This document shows positions 2,524-10,065 of a stretch of DNA of 10,629 nucleotides, one piece after another. Numbering within the stretch: the first letter of the stretch is position 1; each line of letters starts with the position of its first letter. The translations under genes were made by a program, and so were the position numbers. Below the pieces are notes generated by a model. That model was not told where the DNA came from. It did no database searches and worked only from the letters and a program-made list of their open reading frames with translations. The stretch is taken from the IMG/VR virus record IMGVR_UViG_2531839127_000027; one strand, 5' to 3'. Source of the stretch: a virus. Taxonomy: Duplodnaviria > Heunggongvirae > Uroviricota > Caudoviricetes.

Positions 2524-2716
2524 TCATGAATCGCACTTACCTGTCGTGCTGAATGTGCCGTCAGATTATACGGGGCGCGTTTTGATATTCCTGGATAAAG
2601 GGAAAGTGAAATCACAATGCCGTCTTAGAAATAATGAGGTTGTTGGTTCTCTGGCTTTTTTTTCTGAAGCCTGTATTCGTGCCGGAATAAAATCGGAATC
2701 ACTGACAGGAAAATAA
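2516..2716 (+). CDS. Small hypothetical protein (66 aa)
   Basis: ATG 2516 preceded by GGAGGA; overlaps the upstream ORF stop. Confidence 0.4.
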   Translation: MHNHESHLPVVLNVPSDYTGRVLIFLDKGKVKSQCRLRNNEVVGSLAFFSEACIRAGIKSESLTGK

Positions 2717-2720
2717 AACC

Positions 2721-3008
2721 ATGAAAAAGAAAATTTCTGGCTTTACTGCCAGCGGCCCCGCTCGGCCTGAAATCCGCCCCGGCGATATTTTCCGGGATAA
2801 CTACGGCGGCACGATAACGATAAAAGACGTGGAAGAACGGCGCATCACCTACCGTCGTGAAGGCTACGACTATGACTGCGTGATGCCTGTTTATCAGTTC
2901 CGGCGTGATTTTAAGCTGGTGGGCCATCGTAAAGCCGTAAATCAGAAACGTGCAGCAAGCTATATCCGCAAAATCCGTGAAATGCTGGTCGCAGGGGGTA
3001 AGAAATGA
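2721..3008 (+). CDS. Small hypothetical protein (95 aa), translationally coupled to the primase gene
   Basis: ATG 2721 preceded by AGGAAA; stop overlaps the primase start (ATGA at 3005-3008). Confidence 0.5.
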   Translation: MKKKISGFTASGPARPEIRPGDIFRDNYGGTITIKDVEERRITYRREGYDYDCVMPVYQFRRDFKLVGHRKAVNQKRAASYIRKIREMLVAGGKK

Positions 3009-4753
3009 AACTGGCACCGAACGTAAAAAAACAACCACGCGGAATAAAGCACAAAGAAACAGAGGTAATTATTTTCGCGGGTAGTGATGCGTGGGCACAT
3101 GCAAAACAGTGGCAGGAACAGGACGGCCCCGCATCCGGCGATAATGTGCCGCCTGTGTGGCTTGGGCCAAATCAGCTTGCTGAACTTGATGCGCTGAAAA
3201 TTGTTCCGGATGGAAAAAAACGCGTAAGGCTGTACCAGGCCGGAGAACTGGATTTAGTGGAGATCAAAAAGATTGGTCAGAAGCTGGCGGCGGCAGGCGT
3301 ACAGGACGCAAATTTTTACCCCGAAGGAATGCACCACCACGAGCGGCAGAACTGGCGGCGCTATCTGAGTGCTGAGTGTGAAAATATTGCCGCAGGGCTT
3401 ACCATGCCGGAACAGAAAAAAGCACAACTTTCACAGATGGCAGACAGTGAACGGGCACAGCTTCTTGCTTCCCGCTTTGATGGTGTCTGCGTCCATGCCG
3501 AAAGTGAAATCGTTCACGTATGGCGCGGCGGGGTATGGTGTCCGGTCAGCACAATGGAACTTAGCCGCGAAATGGTGGCGATCTATTCAGAGCACAGGGC
3601 CACTTTCAGCAAGCGCGTAATCAATAACGCCGTGGAAGCGTTAAAAGTTATTGCCGAACCAATGGGCGAGCCGTCCGGCGATTTGCTGCCGTTCGCCAAT
3701 GGTGCGCTTGACCTGAAAACGGGGGAATTTTCCCCGCACACGCCGGAGAACTGGATCACCACGCACAACGGCATTGAGTACACGCTACCAGCACCAGGGG
3801 AAAACATCCGCGATAACGCGCCAAACTTTCATAAATGGCTTGAGCACGCAGCCGGAAAAGACCCGCGCAAGATGATGCGTATATGTGCCGCGCTGTACAT
3901 GATTATGGCGAACCGGTACGACTGGCAGATGTTTATTGAGGCCACCGGAGACGGCGGTAGCGGTAAAAGTACATTCACACACATAGCCAGCCTTCTGGCA
4001 GGGAAACAGAACACGGTAAGCGCTGAAATGACATCGCTTGATGATGCTGGTGGACGTGCGCAGGTTGTCGGGAGTCGTCTTATCGTCCTGGCTGACCAGC
4101 CGAAATATACAGGCGAAGGAACGGGCATCAAGAAAATCACAGGCGGCGACCCCGTGGAAATTAACCCGAAATATGAAAAGCGTTTCACGGCGGTAATCAG
4201 GGCGGTGGTGCTGGCGACCAACAACAACCCGATGATATTCACCGAACGGGCCGGAGGGGTGGCACGTCGTCGCGTGATTTTCCGTTTCGACAATATCGTC
4301 AGTGAGGCCGAAAAAGACAGGGAGCTACCGGAAAAGATTGCGGCTGAAATCCCCGTTATTATCCGCCGATTGCTGGCGAACTTTACCGACCCTGAGAAGG
4401 CACGGGCTTTACTACTGGAACAGCGTGACGGTGATGAAGCACTGGCGATAAAGCAGCAAACGGATCCAGTTATTGAGTTTTGCCAGTTCCTGAATTTTCT
4501 GGAGGAAGCGCGTGGCCTGATGATGGGCGGCGGTGGTGATTCCGTGAAGTACACAACCAGGAACAGCCTTTACCGTGTCTATCTGGCGTTTATGGCTTAC
4601 GCAGGCAGGACCAAACCGCTGAACGTAAATGACTTTGGCAAGGCTATGAAGCCCGCCGCGAAAGTTTACGGACATGAATATATTACGCGAAAAGTTAAGG
4701 GGGTAACGCAGACTAACGCAATAACAACAGACGATTGCGAAGCGTTTTTATAA
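3005..4753 (+). CDS. Replication protein: SF3/D5-type NTPase primase-helicase (P4 alpha-like C-terminal region), 582 aa
   Basis: Walker A GDGGSGKST (encoded near 3949-3975), a hydrophobic strand ending in aspartate (LIVLAD) that could be a Walker B, and a later VVLATNNNP stretch. GGGGG RBS before ATG 3005. Followed by an iteron cluster. Confidence 0.85.
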   Translation: MKLAPNVKKQPRGIKHKETEVIIFAGSDAWAHAKQWQEQDGPASGDNVPPVWLGPNQLAELDALKIVPDGKKRVRLYQAGELDLVEIKKIGQKLAAAGVQDANFYPEGMHHHERQNWRRYLSAECENIAAGLTMPEQKKAQLSQMADSERAQLLASRFDGVCVHAESEIVHVWRGGVWCPVSTMELSREMVAIYSEHRATFSKRVINNAVEALKVIAEPMGEPSGDLLPFANGALDLKTGEFSPHTPENWITTHNGIEYTLPAPGENIRDNAPNFHKWLEHAAGKDPRKMMRICAALYMIMANRYDWQMFIEATGDGGSGKSTFTHIASLLAGKQNTVSAEMTSLDDAGGRAQVVGSRLIVLADQPKYTGEGTGIKKITGGDPVEINPKYEKRFTAVIRAVVLATNNNPMIFTERAGGVARRRVIFRFDNIVSEAEKDRELPEKIAAEIPVIIRRLLANFTDPEKARALLLEQRDGDEALAIKQQTDPVIEFCQFLNFLEEARGLMMGGGGDSVKYTTRNSLYRVYLAFMAYAGRTKPLNVNDFGKAMKPAAKVYGHEYITRKVKGVTQTNAITTDDCEAFL

Positions 4754-4766
4754 TTTTTTGCAATGG

Positions 4767-4994
4767 CTGTCTACCCTGTCTACCTGGGTAAAGGAAAATA
4801 CATTTAATTCAGTATATTAACTTAGGTAGACAGCCTTTTTTCACTATCTACCTACTATCTACCCTCTCTACCTGATTTTACCTGAATCAGACAGGGAGGT
4901 AGATACGGGGTAGATAGTGGATAAAAGCACTCTACCCCGATGAAAGCCGCGCCATTACTGGCATTGGGGCCAGCAAGGTAGATAAGGTAGACAA
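4767..4994. repeat. Iteron cluster, candidate origin of replication: 11 copies of TCTACC / GGTAGA in both orientations around an AT-rich core (4791-4823)
   Basis: Read directly: TCTACC at 4770, 4779, 4847, 4857, 4867, 4931; GGTAGA at 4825, 4898, 4909, 4977, 4987. Immediately downstream of the primase-helicase gene. Confidence 0.55.
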
Positions 4995-5042
4995 GGGGAG
5001 GTACAACTCAAAACTTTTTAAACGAGGGGGGTAAAAATAAAA

Positions 5043-5300
5043 ATGCACACATCAGGAAAATTTAACAATCAGAAGAAACCACATAACCGCGCCATTGACC
5101 TTACAGAGCACTGGCTGAGGATGGCGATAAAAATCATCGACCGCAACACGGGAGAGGGATACGCGAAAGCACATCCCGAACTGATAAGCGCATTCATGAC
5201 CACAGCGGCGGCAAACTTTGCCACGCTGACAGATCGGGAGATTGCCGAAGCGGAACAGGTGACAACCATCAACGTTAAAACCGGAGAGCATACAGCATGA
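5043..5300 (+). CDS. Hypothetical protein (85 aa), coupled to the downstream ssb-like gene
   Basis: ATG 5043 follows GAGGGGGG (12-nt spacing); stop overlaps the ssb start (ATGA at 5297-5300). Confidence 0.45.
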   Translation: MHTSGKFNNQKKPHNRAIDLTEHWLRMAIKIIDRNTGEGYAKAHPELISAFMTTAAANFATLTDREIAEAEQVTTINVKTGEHTA

Positions 5301-5719
5301 CAGCACAGATAGCGGCTTACGGGCGGCTGGTGGCTGACCCGCAGTTAAAGACCACCAGCAAGGGCACAACAATGGCGATGGCGAGTATGGCGGTTTCCCT
5401 GCCGTGCAGCCAGGCAGATGACGGAACGGCGACGATGTGGTTATCCGTCCTGGCGTTTGGCAGACAGGCCGACGCACTGGCCAGACACCATAAAGGCGAA
5501 CTGGTGAGCGTGGCGGGTAACATGCAGGTAAGCCAGTGGACAGGCCAGAACGGCGAAACGCGGCAGGGCTGGCAGGTCATCGCAGACAGCGTAATCAGTG
5601 CGAGAACGGCGCGACCGGGCGGCAAAAAAGGCCAGCAGGGCCAGGCTACTGACGCGCTGAACAGGGCAAAACAACAGGCGGGAAATGATGATCCGTACGG
5701 GGATAACATACCGTTTTAA
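5297..5719 (+). CDS. Single-stranded DNA-binding protein homolog (OB fold) with SSB-type C-terminal tip ending IPF, 140 aa
   Basis: By-eye alignment to E. coli SSB: GRLVADPQ / GNLGQDP, WLSVLAFGRQADAL / WHRVVLFGKLAEVA, KGELVSVAGNMQVSQWTGQNGETR / [24 protein letters not shown]. C-terminus DDPYGDNIPF resembles the SSB acidic tail DFDDDIPF. GGAGAG RBS. Confidence 0.75.
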   Translation: MTAQIAAYGRLVADPQLKTTSKGTTMAMASMAVSLPCSQADDGTATMWLSVLAFGRQADALARHHKGELVSVAGNMQVSQWTGQNGETRQGWQVIADSVISARTARPGGKKGQQGQATDALNRAKQQAGNDDPYGDNIPF

Positions 5720-5734
5720 GCAACGAGTGACAGA

Positions 5735-5757
5735 AGCCGGAACAATCCGGCTTTTTT
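5735..5757 (+). terminator. Rho-independent terminator after ssb
   Basis: Stem AGCCGG (5735-5740) / CCGGCT (5747-5752), loop AACAAT, then a T6 run (5752-5757). Confidence 0.6.
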
Positions 5758-5832
5758 ACGGGTCCTCCCGATGGAGTGGCCTTGCCACGGGGCGGGAGCG
5801 GCGCGGAAAAAGGCTGGTTTTTGCATTTTCAT
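5752..5832 (+). repeat. Copy 1 of an 81-bp duplicated segment (77/81 identical to 8288-8368), starting at the terminator T-tract
   Basis: Read directly; contains ACGGGGCGGGAGCGGCGCGG, which resembles the lambda cos-junction sequence ACGGGGCGGCGACCTCGCGG as recalled. Confidence 0.7.
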
Positions 5833-6143: not shown

Positions 6144-6353
6144 GTGAATTGTATTAACGACCTGAACACAGGCGAGGTAAAAGGTGGTTCCGTTCATCTG
6201 GATGCGCAGACCGTTATGCGCCTTAAGCAGTACAGGATCGACCACATAAATCATCATCCTGACCAACCATTACCAGGTGTGGCGCAGATTGTCAGACACG
6301 CAGTTAACGCGTGGCTTGATAAGAATGGTTTTGCATCTGGGGGTGAGCAATGA
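6144..6353 (+). CDS. Small protein (69 aa, GTG start), possibly ribbon-helix-helix-like; first gene of the capsid operon
   Basis: GTG 6144 preceded by AAGAGGA with 7-nt spacing. Stop overlaps the capsid gene start (ATGA at 6350-6353). Pattern SVHLDAQTVMRLKQY...AQIVRHAVNAWL is strand-helix-helix-like. Confidence 0.5.
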   Translation: MNCINDLNTGEVKGGSVHLDAQTVMRLKQYRIDHINHHPDQPLPGVAQIVRHAVNAWLDKNGFASGGEQ

Positions 6354-8263
6354 ATCACTGGTACACCATTAAGGCGGCGGGTGTTCGCGGAGCGGCAGAA
6401 ATATCCATCTATGAAGAAATTGGCGGCTTCGGTATCACCGCGAAGCAGTTTGCGGAAGACCTGAAAGCCCTGGGCGATGTCTCACATATCGACCTGCGGA
6501 TCCATTCGCCAGGTGGTGACGTGTTTGAAGGCATCGCCATCTATAACCTGTTACGGAATCATCCGGCAGAAATTACGGTTTATATCGATGGTGTTGCGGC
6601 TTCAATGGCTTCGGTTGTCGCAATGGCTGGCGATCGTGTTGTGATGCCGGAAAACGCCATGATGATGATACATAAGCCGTGGGGTATCTCTGGCGGAAAT
6701 GCTGGTGATATGCGTGATTATGCTGATTTGCTGGATAAGGTGGAAACCGTGTTAGTCCCTGCTTATGCCAGAAAAACGGGCAAATCAGCACAGGAAATTA
6801 CCGCCATGCTGGAAGATGAAACCTGGATGGACGGGAAAGAATGCCTTAAGCACGGTTTTGCTGATGAATTGTTGCCATCTGTCACAGCAATGGCGCGAAT
6901 TGAATCGAAACGCACAGGAGATTTTTCACACATGCCGGAAACCATTAAAGGAATGATTACCCCGCCACAGGGAGCAGCCAATATTGCTGGTAATGAACAG
7001 AAGCGCATCAACGGAATAAGTGAAGTGTTTAGCCTGTTCGGCAGTCGTTACGACGGGATCAAAATGGCGTGCCTGGAAGATGCATCATGTACACCGGAGA
7101 TGGCCCGTGAAAAGTTGTTGAACGAGATGGGGCGCGAGTCCACGCCATCCAATAAAAATACCCCGGCTCATATTTATGCCGGTAACGGGAACATAACAGG
7201 CGATGCAATTCGTCAGGGGCTTTATTCCCGTCTCGGGTATGAACGCCCAGAGCGGGGAAATCCTTACGCGATGATGAGCCTTTTTGAAATGGCCCAGGCA
7301 TCACTAACGGATCGTGGTATCAGTGTTGGCGGTTTTTTAAATCGCTCGCAGGTCGTTAATGCAGCTTTCACACACAGCAGCAGCGATTTTTCTCACATTC
7401 TGGCTGGTGGTGCTGAAAAATCAGTACTGAAAGGCTGGCAGGACAGCGGCGAAACGTTCCAGAAATGGACGCGTACCGGATCGCTTTCAAACTTTCATGA
7501 AGCAAAGCGCGTTGGTCTGAATGGTTTTTCAAAGCTGGATAAAGTACCGGAAGGTGCGGAATATAAATACATCACCACCAGCGATAAAGGTGTACCTATT
7601 GCGCTGGCCACATACGGTAATATTTTTTCTGTTACCCGTCAGGCCATTATCAACGATGACCTGACCCAGTTAACTACAATCCCCATGGCGATGGGGCGTG
7701 CGGCCGCCAGAACAGTAGGTAATCTGGTTTATCTTCTGTTAACCAGCAACGGCAAATTTACGGATAGTAAAGCGTTATTCCATGCCGATCATAAAAATCT
7801 TATTGCGAAGGATATGGACATGGAGGGGCTTAACGAAGCCCGTAAGCTGATGCGACTACAGGAGGATGCCAACGGCGACTCCCTGAATATTACCCCCGCA
7901 TTTGTCCTGGCCCCCGCCGCGCTGGAGTCTGCCGCACATCGCGCCATTCTGTCATCGTCATCACTCTTTCCGGTTGATGGTGATGGCACTATCAATCAGA
8001 ACCCCGGTATCATTAACGTGGTGAAAGATATGGCTGAGGTTATTGTTGAGCCACGTCTTGATAAGAACAATAACAAGGAGTGGTATGTAGCCGCAGCGAA
8101 AGGGATGGACACGATAGAGGTCGCTTATCTTGATGGTATTGATACGCCATATCTTGAGGAGCAGGTGGGCTTTACTGTTGATGGTGTCGCCTGGAAGGTG
8201 CGCATAGATGCAGGTGTCGCGGCCCTCGATTATCGTGGACTACTGAAATCGAACGGAGCATGA
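6350..8263 (+). CDS. Fusion polyprotein: N-terminal ClpP-like (S14-type) prohead protease domain, linker/scaffold-like region, C-terminal HK97-fold major capsid protein; 637 aa
   Basis: N-terminal region carries ClpP catalytic-site motifs GVAASMAS (ClpP GQAASMG) and MIHKP (ClpP MIHQP). C-terminal about 330 aa has capsid-like features (FSVTRQAIINDD, TIEVAYLDG, GLLKS). GGGGTGAG RBS. Confidence 0.85.
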   Translation: MNHWYTIKAAGVRGAAEISIYEEIGGFGITAKQFAEDLKALGDVSHIDLRIHSPGGDVFEGIAIYNLLRNHPAEITVYIDGVAASMASVVAMAGDRVVMPENAMMMIHKPWGISGGNAGDMRDYADLLDKVETVLVPAYARKTGKSAQEITAMLEDETWMDGKECLKHGFADELLPSVTAMARIESKRTGDFSHMPETIKGMITPPQGAANIAGNEQKRINGISEVFSLFGSRYDGIKMACLEDASCTPEMAREKLLNEMGRESTPSNKNTPAHIYAGNGNITGDAIRQGLYSRLGYERPERGNPYAMMSLFEMAQASLTDRGISVGGFLNRSQVVNAAFTHSSSDFSHILAGGAEKSVLKGWQDSGETFQKWTRTGSLSNFHEAKRVGLNGFSKLDKVPEGAEYKYITTSDKGVPIALATYGNIFSVTRQAIINDDLTQLTTIPMAMGRAAARTVGNLVYLLLTSNGKFTDSKALFHADHKNLIAKDMDMEGLNEARKLMRLQEDANGDSLNITPAFVLAPAALESAAHRAILSSSSLFPVDGDGTINQNPGIINVVKDMAEVIVEPRLDKNNNKEWYVAAAKGMDTIEVAYLDGIDTPYLEEQVGFTVDGVAWKVRIDAGVAALDYRGLLKSNGA

Positions 8264-8269
8264 CAACAA

Positions 8270-8293
8270 GGGCGGCGACAGCCGCCTTTTTTT
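8270..8293 (+). terminator. Hairpin plus T7 tract after the capsid gene; stem sequence matches lambda cosN as recalled
   Basis: GGGCGGCGAC at 8270-8279 matches the first 10 nt of the lambda cosN overhang GGGCGGCGACCT (from memory). Stem GGCGGC (8271-8276) / GCCGCC (8281-8286), loop GACA, T7 at 8287-8293. Confidence 0.5.
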
Positions 8294-8368
8294 ACGGGTC
8301 CTCCCGGTGTGGTGTCCTTGCCACGGGGCGGGAGCGGCGCGGAAAAAGGCTGGTTTTTGCATTTTCAT
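8288..8368 (+). repeat. Copy 2 of the 81-bp duplicated segment (see 5752-5832)
   Basis: 77/81 identity; all four mismatches fall in one 9-mer (ATGGAGTGG vs GTGTGGTGT). Confidence 0.7.
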
Positions 8369-8521
8369 TCGTCATCATCATCTTTCTATCATATTGAATA
8401 TTAAGTGTTTTTATTTTTGGTATGTTAATTTCGCTTATTTTGTGTTCAACATACAGCGCGTTTTTTGACCTTTTTTGAAAGATATTTGCAAGATGCATGT
8501 TTAAAACATTCTGGAGCGGGT

Positions 8522-9007
8522 ATGGATCGGGAACTGAAAAATCTGATGCTGAACATTAACCAGCTGGCGGCGATAGCGGGAATATGTCGCCAGACTGCGG
8601 CGGCAAGGCTGAAAAATATCCAGCCAGCCGGAGGACATGACAAGCTGAAACTCTATCGGGTGACTGACATTCTGACCTGTTTTCTTGATCTTCCCGTTCC
8701 GGCATCACTGGAAGAAATGGAGCCACACGACCGTAAGGCCTGGTATCAGTCCGAACGTGAGCGCCTCAAGTTCGAACAGGAAACGGCGCAACTCATACCC
8801 GCCGATGATGTGCGAAAAGAGATGGCTATATGGGGAGAAATCGTAAGCGAGGAACTGGAAAAACTCCCCAGTATTCTGGCACGTGATGCTGGGCTTAAAC
8901 CGATGGCAGTAAACAGAGTGCAGTCAATTATTGACGATTTGTGTAATCAGATTATCAGCCGGATGGTGAAAAATGACGTAGTGAATGAGGTCGCAAAACA
9001 GGCATGA
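8522..9007 (+). CDS. Nu1-like terminase small subunit homolog (161 aa); candidate packaging-specificity or packaging-redirecting protein
   Basis: ATG 8522 preceded by GGAG with 5-nt spacing. N-terminus LNINQLAAIAGICRQTAAARLKN resembles the lambda Nu1 HTH region (KKQLADIFGASIRTIQNWQ) as recalled. Sits directly downstream of the cos-like region. The listed ORF starts at a TTG at 8465 without an RBS. Confidence 0.7.
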   Translation: MDRELKNLMLNINQLAAIAGICRQTAAARLKNIQPAGGHDKLKLYRVTDILTCFLDLPVPASLEEMEPHDRKAWYQSERERLKFEQETAQLIPADDVRKEMAIWGEIVSEELEKLPSILARDAGLKPMAVNRVQSIIDDLCNQIISRMVKNDVVNEVAKQA

Positions 9008-9291
9008 TAATGACCGAATCTGAAATACTGCGATTAATCCGCCGTGCTGGTGGAATCAGCCAGCTGGCTGACGAACATGCCAAGCAGCCGGATACAGTCA
9101 CCGCTGAAAATTACGCGCGTGTGGTGGCTGAGGTGATGCACCGTGACGGTATTGAGTTTAACGGCGTGGATATGCGCAATATACGCACCAGAGTTCTGGA
9201 GATGTTGTCATACCGTCGCCGCGTGCAGATGTACCAGGAGAAAGAAAAAATTACGTACCGGTGGAAGAAGCCGGAGCGGTTACGACGTTAA
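9004..9291 (+). CDS. Hypothetical protein (95 aa), translationally coupled to the terS-like gene
   Basis: ATG 9004 overlaps the terS stop (ATGA); alternative ATG at 9010. Hydrophilic, basic C-terminus. No family recognised. Confidence 0.45.
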   Translation: MIMTESEILRLIRRAGGISQLADEHAKQPDTVTAENYARVVAEVMHRDGIEFNGVDMRNIRTRVLEMLSYRRRVQMYQEKEKITYRWKKPERLRR

Positions 9292-9297
9292 CTTGTG

Positions 9298-9332
9298 GTG
9301 ACATACCGTGACGGAGAGTGACACACAGTGAC
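9298..9332. repeat. Four direct GTGAC repeats with exact 10-bp phasing; candidate recombinase/excisionase binding array near the right end
   Basis: Read directly: GTGAC at 9298, 9308, 9318, 9328, immediately after the last element ORF. Confidence 0.45.
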
Positions 9333-9823
9333 AAAAAAGACGGTATTTAAATCGGGTGGTGTTTAATACCCCCAGGGGGATAGAAATCCCTACACCTCAT
9401 TGCTTATGGGACCGCCCGCCTACCCTTGTTCACATCGCCGCAGGTTCGAAAACTTTTTTTGGGAAGGTGTGCACGGGATTGATAGATGAGGTCTATCTAT
9501 AAAAAATCACAAAATCCGCGCCATTGCTGGATCCGCCAAAAATCCCCCACCTTACGGCAGACAAAGAAAACGCGAATTATGGGCCTGTTGCAGAGAAAAA
9601 AGGTCTCACTAGTTTTGCGCACCCTAGCATCGAGGTTCGTCAGCCTCCCATCAGCAACCAGATAACTAATCTCGCTGGTGGGCATGATGCCGATATGGGG
9701 ACTTCCATAACGGTTTATCCGTGATCATCCACCAGCTTCATGGCGGATAGCCGGAAAATGATAACGGTATAGCCCGTCGCTTGTGTCTATTTGTTCCGCA
9801 TTGTTGCATACAGTGCACCGAAC

Positions 9824-9847
9824 GGTGTAGTTAATGGTGTAGTTAAT
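9824..9847. repeat. Perfect tandem duplication of the 12-mer GGTGTAGTTAAT in the region upstream of the Smr gene
   Basis: Read directly (9824-9835 and 9836-9847). Confidence 0.4.
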
Positions 9848-10065
9848 TTGCGATTTTTAACGTTATTTGCAGCGATATTTGTTGGTTAAATTCAATAAGT
9901 TATGCGCATTTAATTATAAATATCGTGAATGAATAATCATGCATAAGCATTTTGCTTAAAATATCGGCAATATTTGGAACTTATTACTGGAATTTTGGGT
10001 AATACGTTGTTGGACCGACCCGGTCTGGTTATCATATCGCGCTCTTAATTGCGGGAGGATGTAAC

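Follow-up and report, generated by a model that had tools for sequence, protein, structure and literature searches.

A predicted single-stranded DNA-binding protein in the replication module of a PICI-type satellite of Escherichia coli

Layout of the island and its replication block

The sequence described here, which we call the window, is the whole 10,629-nucleotide stretch of DNA that was analysed. Its sequence matches E. coli chromosomes at 99.9% identity, and in these it occupies a site between abgR and smrA as an island of ~11 kb. A tyrosine integrase is encoded immediately upstream of the window (4814-6043 in L001, a locus 99.9% identical to the window), AlpA follows within the window at 411-599, and nearly all genes lie on the plus strand. 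On the left the gene order is int, alpA, ylcI/ynfO (on the minus strand), an icd-like gene, two hypotheticals, DUF4222, the primase-helicase and the iteron region. The order then continues with an 85-aa open reading frame (ORF), the gene for a predicted single-stranded DNA-binding protein (SSB), a terminator, a cos site, small ORFs, a ClpP-protease/major-capsid fusion, a second terminator and cos site, a DUF1441/terS-like gene and the gene for a phrog_1561 protein. The features on which our interpretation depends are the following.

3005..4753, plus strand: D5/P4-family primase-helicase (pri-rep), 582 aa; Pfam D5_N, DUF5906 and Pox_D5, phrog_864, TIGR01613
4770..4991, no strand assigned: iteron-type replication origin; AT-rich stretch with TCTACC/GGTAGA repeats on either side, inverted repeat I1, homology to EcCICFT073
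5043..5300, plus strand: 85-aa ORF; phrog_1231 (unknown function), E=1.9e-46; stop overlapping the SSB start
5297..5719, plus strand: SSB gene, 140 aa plus stop; Pfam SSB, TIGR00621, phrog_44, RefSeq annotation
5732..5757, plus strand: intrinsic-terminator-like hairpin with T-run directly 3' of the SSB stop codon; from RNA folding
5752..5832, plus strand: lambdoid cos site, copy 1; direct repeat D1, blastn to phage genome ends
8288-8368: lambdoid cos site, copy 2; 95% identical to copy 1

The primase-helicase matches the phrog_864 DNA primase family with E=1.5e-167. Directly beyond it, 11 of the 12 TCTACC copies in the window fall within 4770-4991, where 2.2 copies would be expected in the window as a whole. 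The SSB ORF begins with ATG, encodes 140 aa ending in ...NDDPYGDNIPF and is closed by a TAA stop at 5717-5719. Its ATG shares the tetranucleotide ATGA (5297-5300) with the TGA stop of the 85-aa ORF, and a GGAG motif is found at 5282-5285, ~11 nt 5' of the start. The initial annotation had described a satellite-encoded SSB homologue at 5297-5719, with the tail DDPYGDNIPF, placed after a primase-helicase and an origin. The ORF listing and the sequence bear out the ORF and its tail, the primase at 3005-4753 and the TCTACC cluster at 4770-4991 show the placement to be correct, and the satellite assignment agrees with the PICI layout of the element and with a replication block orthologous to that of EcCICFT073. 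The 85-aa ORF between the origin and the SSB gene, overlapping the SSB start, was absent from that description. It has no match in Pfam or NCBIfam; its 163 homologues are nearly all ‘hypothetical proteins’ of Escherichia or Shigella, and its AlphaFold model is helical and of low confidence (mean pLDDT 63, pTM 0.37).

Direct RNA folding of the sequence 3' of the SSB gene (5732-5757) gave a hairpin of -18.4 kcal/mol (z = -3.7), composed of a 10-bp GC-rich stem followed by UUUUUU, though a simple terminator scan did not call it. Such a hairpin precedes each copy of an 81-nt direct repeat (5752-5832 and 8288-8368). In blastn, an alignment that starts at window position 5790 (GGGCGGGAGCGG…) covers positions 1-71, at the very left end, of the Tritos and cdtI phage genomes, and the region also matches near the right end of the mEp460 record. 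Together, the direct repeat and the lambdoid cos matches indicate that the island has two cos sites, one after the SSB gene and one after the capsid-fusion gene. The ClpP-like prohead protease/major capsid fusion itself extends over 6350-8263 (NF045540, 902 bits) and the DUF1441/terS-like protein over 8465-9007; these are the only late genes of the island, in which no tail, portal, large-terminase or lysis genes were found. The window yielded no RNA family at the Rfam gathering threshold and no tRNAs, and no recombinase gene was found in the island by Pfam, PHROG or annotation. Judged by its integrase, AlpA, primase, iteron origin, two cos sites and small size, the element is a Gram-negative PICI-type satellite. 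The SSB gene has the same orientation as the genes from AlpA to the primase and is probably co-transcribed with them.

Family, fold and conserved residues of the SSB

The domains of the encoded protein map onto the gene as follows.

5297..5605, plus strand: OB-fold domain, predicted to bind ssDNA, residues 1-103; AlphaFold, Foldseek, conserved aromatics, dN/dS
5606..5686, plus strand: short variable linker, predicted disordered, residues 104-130; pLDDT, variability, end of EcCICFT073 homology
5687..5716, plus strand: C-terminal tip DDPYGDNIPF, residues 131-140; sequence and homologue tails

Family searches of the SSB ORF agree on its identity. The Pfam family PF00436 was matched with 59.5 bits against a cut-off of 26 (E=3.8e-16), the NCBIfam family TIGR00621 with 64.3 bits against a cut-off of 53.95, and the PHROG family phrog_44, ‘single strand DNA binding protein’, with E=2.9e-40. 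In a sequence search of the PDB, SSBs accounted for 27 of the 28 best matches, led by those of Thermus, Deinococcus and Thermotoga (1e-9 to 5e-11), with E. coli SSB at 8.6e-6. A direct BLASTP comparison with the E. coli SSB, for which we used a reference sequence checked to be identical to PDB 1eqq_A, showed the two OB domains to be 27% identical (E=5e-10). The AlphaFold2 model, built with a 102-sequence alignment, presents residues 1-103 as a confident OB barrel of six strands and one helix (block pLDDT 84-94), followed by a tail that is disordered, with pLDDT <50 for residues 104-120 and 128-140. When this model was compared with the PDB by Foldseek, the 50 matches listed were all bacterial SSBs (probability 1.0, target-normalised TM 0.65-0.78). 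The initial annotation had aligned the protein by eye to the E. coli OB fold, proposing an HMM search and a structure prediction as checks. PF00436 and TIGR00621 both scored above their curated cut-offs and the structure prediction gave an OB barrel, so that the two outcomes that might have spoken against an SSB, no family hit or a fold that is not OB-like, were both decided in its favour. The protein encoded at 5297-5719 is thus supported by family and predicted fold as a bacterial-type SSB, which would be expected to bind ssDNA.

The residues through which E. coli SSB stacks on ssDNA (W40, W54, F60 and W88) are kept in three of four cases: in the pairwise BLASTP alignment W48, F54 and W81 of the satellite protein correspond to W54, F60 and W88, and Gln39 takes the position of W40. 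The three aromatics are invariant in 36 of 36 homologues taken from different genera. At the position of E. coli SSB H55, a residue important for the tetramer, the satellite SSB has Leu49. The two proteins share the family, the OB fold, a disordered linker and an IPF-ending tip, and differ in that the satellite SSB is encoded on a mobile element and E. coli SSB in the chromosome core; the satellite SSB is also shorter (140 vs 178 aa), with a linker of ~27 rather than ~56 aa and a shorter L23 loop.

Conservation within the clade is uneven along the protein. Among the 36 homologues the mean frequency of the top residue is 0.54 in the linker of ~27 residues, compared with 0.79 in the OB domain. 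The tail, on the other hand, follows the consensus P-[FY]-D-D-[ED]-x-P-F: a C-terminal Phe is present in 32 of the 36 genus-level homologues and Pro-Phe in 21, and 32 end in an acidic stretch plus the terminal Phe. The retention of the IPF tip to which the initial annotation had drawn attention is therefore real, being conserved across the clade while the linker varies. Tails of the form xD[NGDE]IPF also prevail in most of the 120 closest homologue clusters in the database. A search of 1.84 billion cluster representatives returned 8395 SSB-like representatives at E ≤ 1e-3, 362 of them at E ≤ 1e-10, making the wider subfamily a modest one; of 103 distant full-size representatives drawn from this search, 63 have a C-terminal F, and in 41 the last two residues are PF. 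For the OB domain, pairwise dN/dS values lie between 0.05 and 0.25. Together with the invariant aromatics and the kept tip, these low values indicate that the SSB gene is under purifying selection and that the tip is a selected feature rather than a leftover.

Through its tip, host SSB docks Pol III chi, PriA, RecQ, exonuclease I and other partners. By analogy with known SSB tips, it is a reasonable inference that the satellite tip recruits host or helper partners. The satellite tip is less acidic than that of the host (D-N-I-P-F vs D-D-D-I-P-F), having three acidic residues in the last 10, and the tails of its relatives sometimes end in DDF, PEF or SF, so that satellite and host SSB may differ in partner specificity.

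Relatives in satellites, plasmids and phages

An experimentally studied relative of the window is the island of E. coli CFT073, located between roxA and phoQ, which has the same layout and whose genes bear the names used for the model PICI EcCICFT073. Window positions 2705-5625 are 87% identical to it at the DNA level, and the block composed of DUF4222, pri, ori, the 85-aa ORF and SSB is orthologous in the two elements, with SSB in the same position. Identities amount to 91% for Pri, 95% for the origin region, 91% for the 85-aa ORF and 70.7% for the SSB (WP_000126698.1), and the SSB tip reads DDPYGDDIPF in EcCICFT073 and DDPYGDNIPF in the window. The elements diverge beyond this block. A terminator and cos site lie 3' of the SSB gene in the window and PerC in EcCICFT073; the late region holds the ClpP-protease/capsid fusion and DUF1441 in the former, and a lambda-E-like capsid, a decoration protein and RppA in the latter; and the integration sites are abgR-smrA and roxA-phoQ, respectively. 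Close to its right end the window island has a 93-nt stretch (9780-9872) that shares 89% identity with the corresponding end of the CFT073 island (16060-16152 in locus L050). Its conservation despite the different sites (smrA vs phoQ) may mark it as element-end or attachment-site-adjacent sequence.

The DNA homology with EcCICFT073 ends at 5625, inside the SSB linker (~residue 109). The linkers themselves are unrelated, reading GKKGQQGQATDALNRAKQQAGN in the window and GNRRKTTGTQGNQPPAGG in EcCICFT073, and both proteins finish in DDPYGD[ND]IPF. The stop of homology inside the linker, followed by a shared tail, points to a mosaic junction within the SSB gene.

In a one-genome-per-species collection, SSB relatives were found at 42 loci. 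At thirty-nine of these the relatives are 39-86% identical, and almost all of the records bear an Enterobacterales label, with Escherichia, Klebsiella, Enterobacter, Leclercia, Citrobacter, Buttiauxella, Serratia, Pectobacterium, Edwardsiella, Pantoea, Erwinia, Rahnella and Rosenbergiella among the genera of that order; the other three loci are from Lachnospiraceae and only 27-28% identical. Three of the 39 bear different labels (Chryseobacterium, Paceibacterota and Fulvimarina). The first two, labelled Chryseobacterium sp. (L014) and Candidatus Paceibacterota MAG (L037), hold Enterobacterales-type satellite SSB modules at 64-65% identity, and the former also has an 81%-identical zinc primase-helicase, which suggests that these assemblies are contaminated or mis-binned. 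Within E. coli the lineage is common, and the block of the 85-aa ORF and SSB gave megablast matches in 1736 of 5426 complete genomes, at up to six places per genome.

The genetic context of the gene is nearly constant. At the 42 loci, as well as in E. coli O157:H7 and CFT073, the SSB gene nearly always lies immediately downstream of a satellite primase or helicase, often with int and alpA further upstream and a PerC-like gene downstream. The adjoining replicases are of three unrelated kinds (D5/P4-type, zinc-ribbon primase-helicase and RepA-type helicase), and the SSB therefore appears to be a portable part of the satellite replication zone that is not bound to one replicase.

At least some of the matches in the plasmid collection, at 70-96% identity, are chromosomal sequence filed as plasmid. 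One such record, NZ_CP141089.1, is chromosome-sized at 4.9 Mb. In another (NZ_CP031350.1, ‘plasmid p1RM9154-C1’), the genes potA, pepT, roxA, phoPQ and purB surround the same PICI, so that it looks chromosomal and mislabelled; potA, pepT, phoPQ and purB likewise surround the PICI in entry H46 of the plasmid collection. Other plasmid matches are small circular records with a large primase-like gene adjoining SSB. Plasmid pSG2 of Sodalis glossinidius is a genuine, mobilisable plasmid (MOBP relaxase, MobC) that carries an SSB gene at 8998-9477, just downstream of relaxase-region genes. With 59% identity to the satellite SSB in the OB domain, its product falls into the same clade, which is thus not strictly limited to satellites. 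Extra SSB copies on mobile replicons are also known from F-plasmid-type SSBs, and mobile-element SSBs that keep the acidic tip are a long-known kind. Plasmid SSBs sit beside relaxase genes in transfer or leading regions, and their presumed role is on incoming single strands. The satellite SSB, unlike these, adjoins an iteron origin and a primase-helicase, and the lambdoid cos sites imply that the satellite is packaged as double-stranded DNA.

Among 50,697 phage records we found no SSB relative above ~30% identity. The nearest phage SSBs are ~26-30% identical, the best of them (~30%) coming from Gram-positive phages or a metagenomic virus. Two simple origins for the gene were considered and rejected: a recent capture from a helper phage, given that the best phage match is of this low identity and from such sources, and a recent copy of the host ssb, given the 27% identity to E. 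coli SSB.

The gene has been named before. RefSeq lists the protein in locus L001 (WP_001474139.1) as ‘single-stranded DNA-binding protein’, and a 2023 study of PICIs counted SSB, alongside Primase and DUF5906, among the families of the ‘Replication’ zone of Gram-negative PICIs, which colocalises with the mapped ori (PMC10111431). A text search for SSB terms in the satellite literature (de Sousa 2023, the Alqurainy 2022 preprint, Fillol-Salom 2018/2019 and the EcCIMP1 paper) returned no functional data on a satellite SSB. Given the RefSeq name, the earlier replication-zone listing and the known tip-bearing SSBs of mobile elements, we regard the identification of the SSB as correct but ordinary and already known. 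Only two points are mildly unexpected: the absence of the lineage from phages, and a linker swap with retention of the tip.

Possible roles of the satellite SSB

We propose that the SSB is probably an accessory replication protein of the PICI-type satellite, one that would coat ssDNA and offer a host-type docking tip. Following induction of the island by a helper phage, the satellite primase-helicase would open the iteron origin, and the exposed single strands could be coated by the satellite SSB through its OB fold and the aromatics W48, F54 and W81. Its flexible tail would then present the acidic, Phe-terminated tip (…DDPYGDNIPF), which resembles that by which host SSB docks its partners. 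In this way the satellite might bring its own supply of SSB to a replication burst, free of the host SSB pool, with the host machinery still within reach. The proposal is based on the family, the fold, the conserved residues and tip, the purifying selection and the constant gene context, and on what is known of SSB tips in general, with phage HK620 SSB, which needs its tail NDYPPF for its partner Sak4, as a documented mobile-element example (PMC5928155); binding of ssDNA, the oligomeric state, the partners of the tip and a benefit to the satellite are predictions that follow from these sequence features.

The experimental record for the related EcCICFT073 is informative here. Helper-phage-dependent induction, packaging and transfer have been shown for that element in two reports (PMC6739421, PMC6092414). 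Fillol-Salom et al. 2018 (PMC6092414) place the origin that was tested and found functional just 3' of pri, and the origin region of the window is 95% identical to the intergenic region directly 3' of EcCICFT073 pri. According to the same study, a segment described as pri plus ori suffices for plasmid replication in DH5alpha (PMC6092414). It follows that origin firing does not require the satellite SSB as long as host SSB is available, and whatever benefit the satellite protein confers must be quantitative or conditional.

Several alternatives can be weighed against an accessory role. We consider it unlikely, if conceivable, that the SSB works mainly with a dedicated partner (the 85-aa protein, the satellite primase-helicase or a helper-phage recombinase) and not with the host interactome. 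The ATGA overlap with the 85-aa ORF, the joint conservation of both genes in Escherichia and the departure of the tip from the host consensus would fit such a partnership, for which phage HK620 offers a precedent in its SSB and Sak4, the tail NDYPPF of that SSB being required for binding Sak4 (PMC5928155). Like the satellite protein, that of HK620 is a mobile-element SSB in which an OB fold is combined with a tail that is acidic, ends in PF and serves to bind a partner (PMC5928155); the satellite differs, however, in having no adjoining recombinase, and the island as a whole lacks a detectable gene for one. Moreover, the small upstream ORF is not constant, since other genera have a different one or none that was detected, and the SSB occurs with replicases of three unrelated families, which speaks against its being tailored to one of them.

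A further reading, which we hold to be distinctly unlikely, takes the SSB not for a spare copy but for a satellite-specialised one that has evolved to steer a subset of host SSB partners, or a helper protein, to satellite forks at the expense of the helper, or to avoid SSB-sensing defences. This reading would draw on the occurrence of the clade in satellites and a few plasmids but not in phages, on the short, swappable linker and on the altered tip.

It is very unlikely, in our estimate, that the SSB serves chiefly as a weapon or shield, either as a tip-bearing decoy that draws host partners away from the helper or by evading or triggering an SSB-sensing defence. Defence systems responding to phage SSB-like proteins reportedly exist, going by the title of a 2026 bioRxiv report on DRT10, and this would count in favour of such a role, as would the prevalence of the clade in satellites against its absence above ~30% identity from the phage records; the kept tip also makes competition for host partners conceivable. 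However, the gene always sits in the replication block and not in an accessory or interference region, and PADLOC matched neither the SSB nor the 85-aa ORF nor the genes around them, the one exception being a weak, sub-significant match of the primase to mad3. When EcCICFT073 genes downstream of the origin were expressed singly, only c1503 (RppA) reduced lambda plaquing (PMC6739421), which speaks against a direct effect of the SSB orthologue if that gene was, as its position suggests, among the clones.

Finally, that the gene is a decaying passenger without current function appears highly improbable: the dispensability of SSB for origin-dependent replication in the plasmid test and the truncated or frameshifted copies in some genomes (L031, L041 and partial database entries) would be compatible with decay, but most loci, in many different genera, retain an intact ORF, dN/dS is 0.05-0.25, the DNA-binding residues are invariant and the tip is conserved.

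The analysis confirms that this E. coli satellite family carries a complete small replication kit, consisting of a primase-helicase, an iteron origin and an SSB, a fact that is useful for annotation. The point that may deserve the attention of specialists is that this SSB lineage is present in roughly one third of complete E. coli genomes, nearly always beside a satellite replicase, and has no close relative in sequenced phages. Were the SSB satellite-specialised, it would be a determinant of the conflict between satellite, helper and host rather than a housekeeping add-on. If it is true that the modified tip selects host or helper partners, it would provide a simple handle on the competition between satellite and helper for the host replication machinery.
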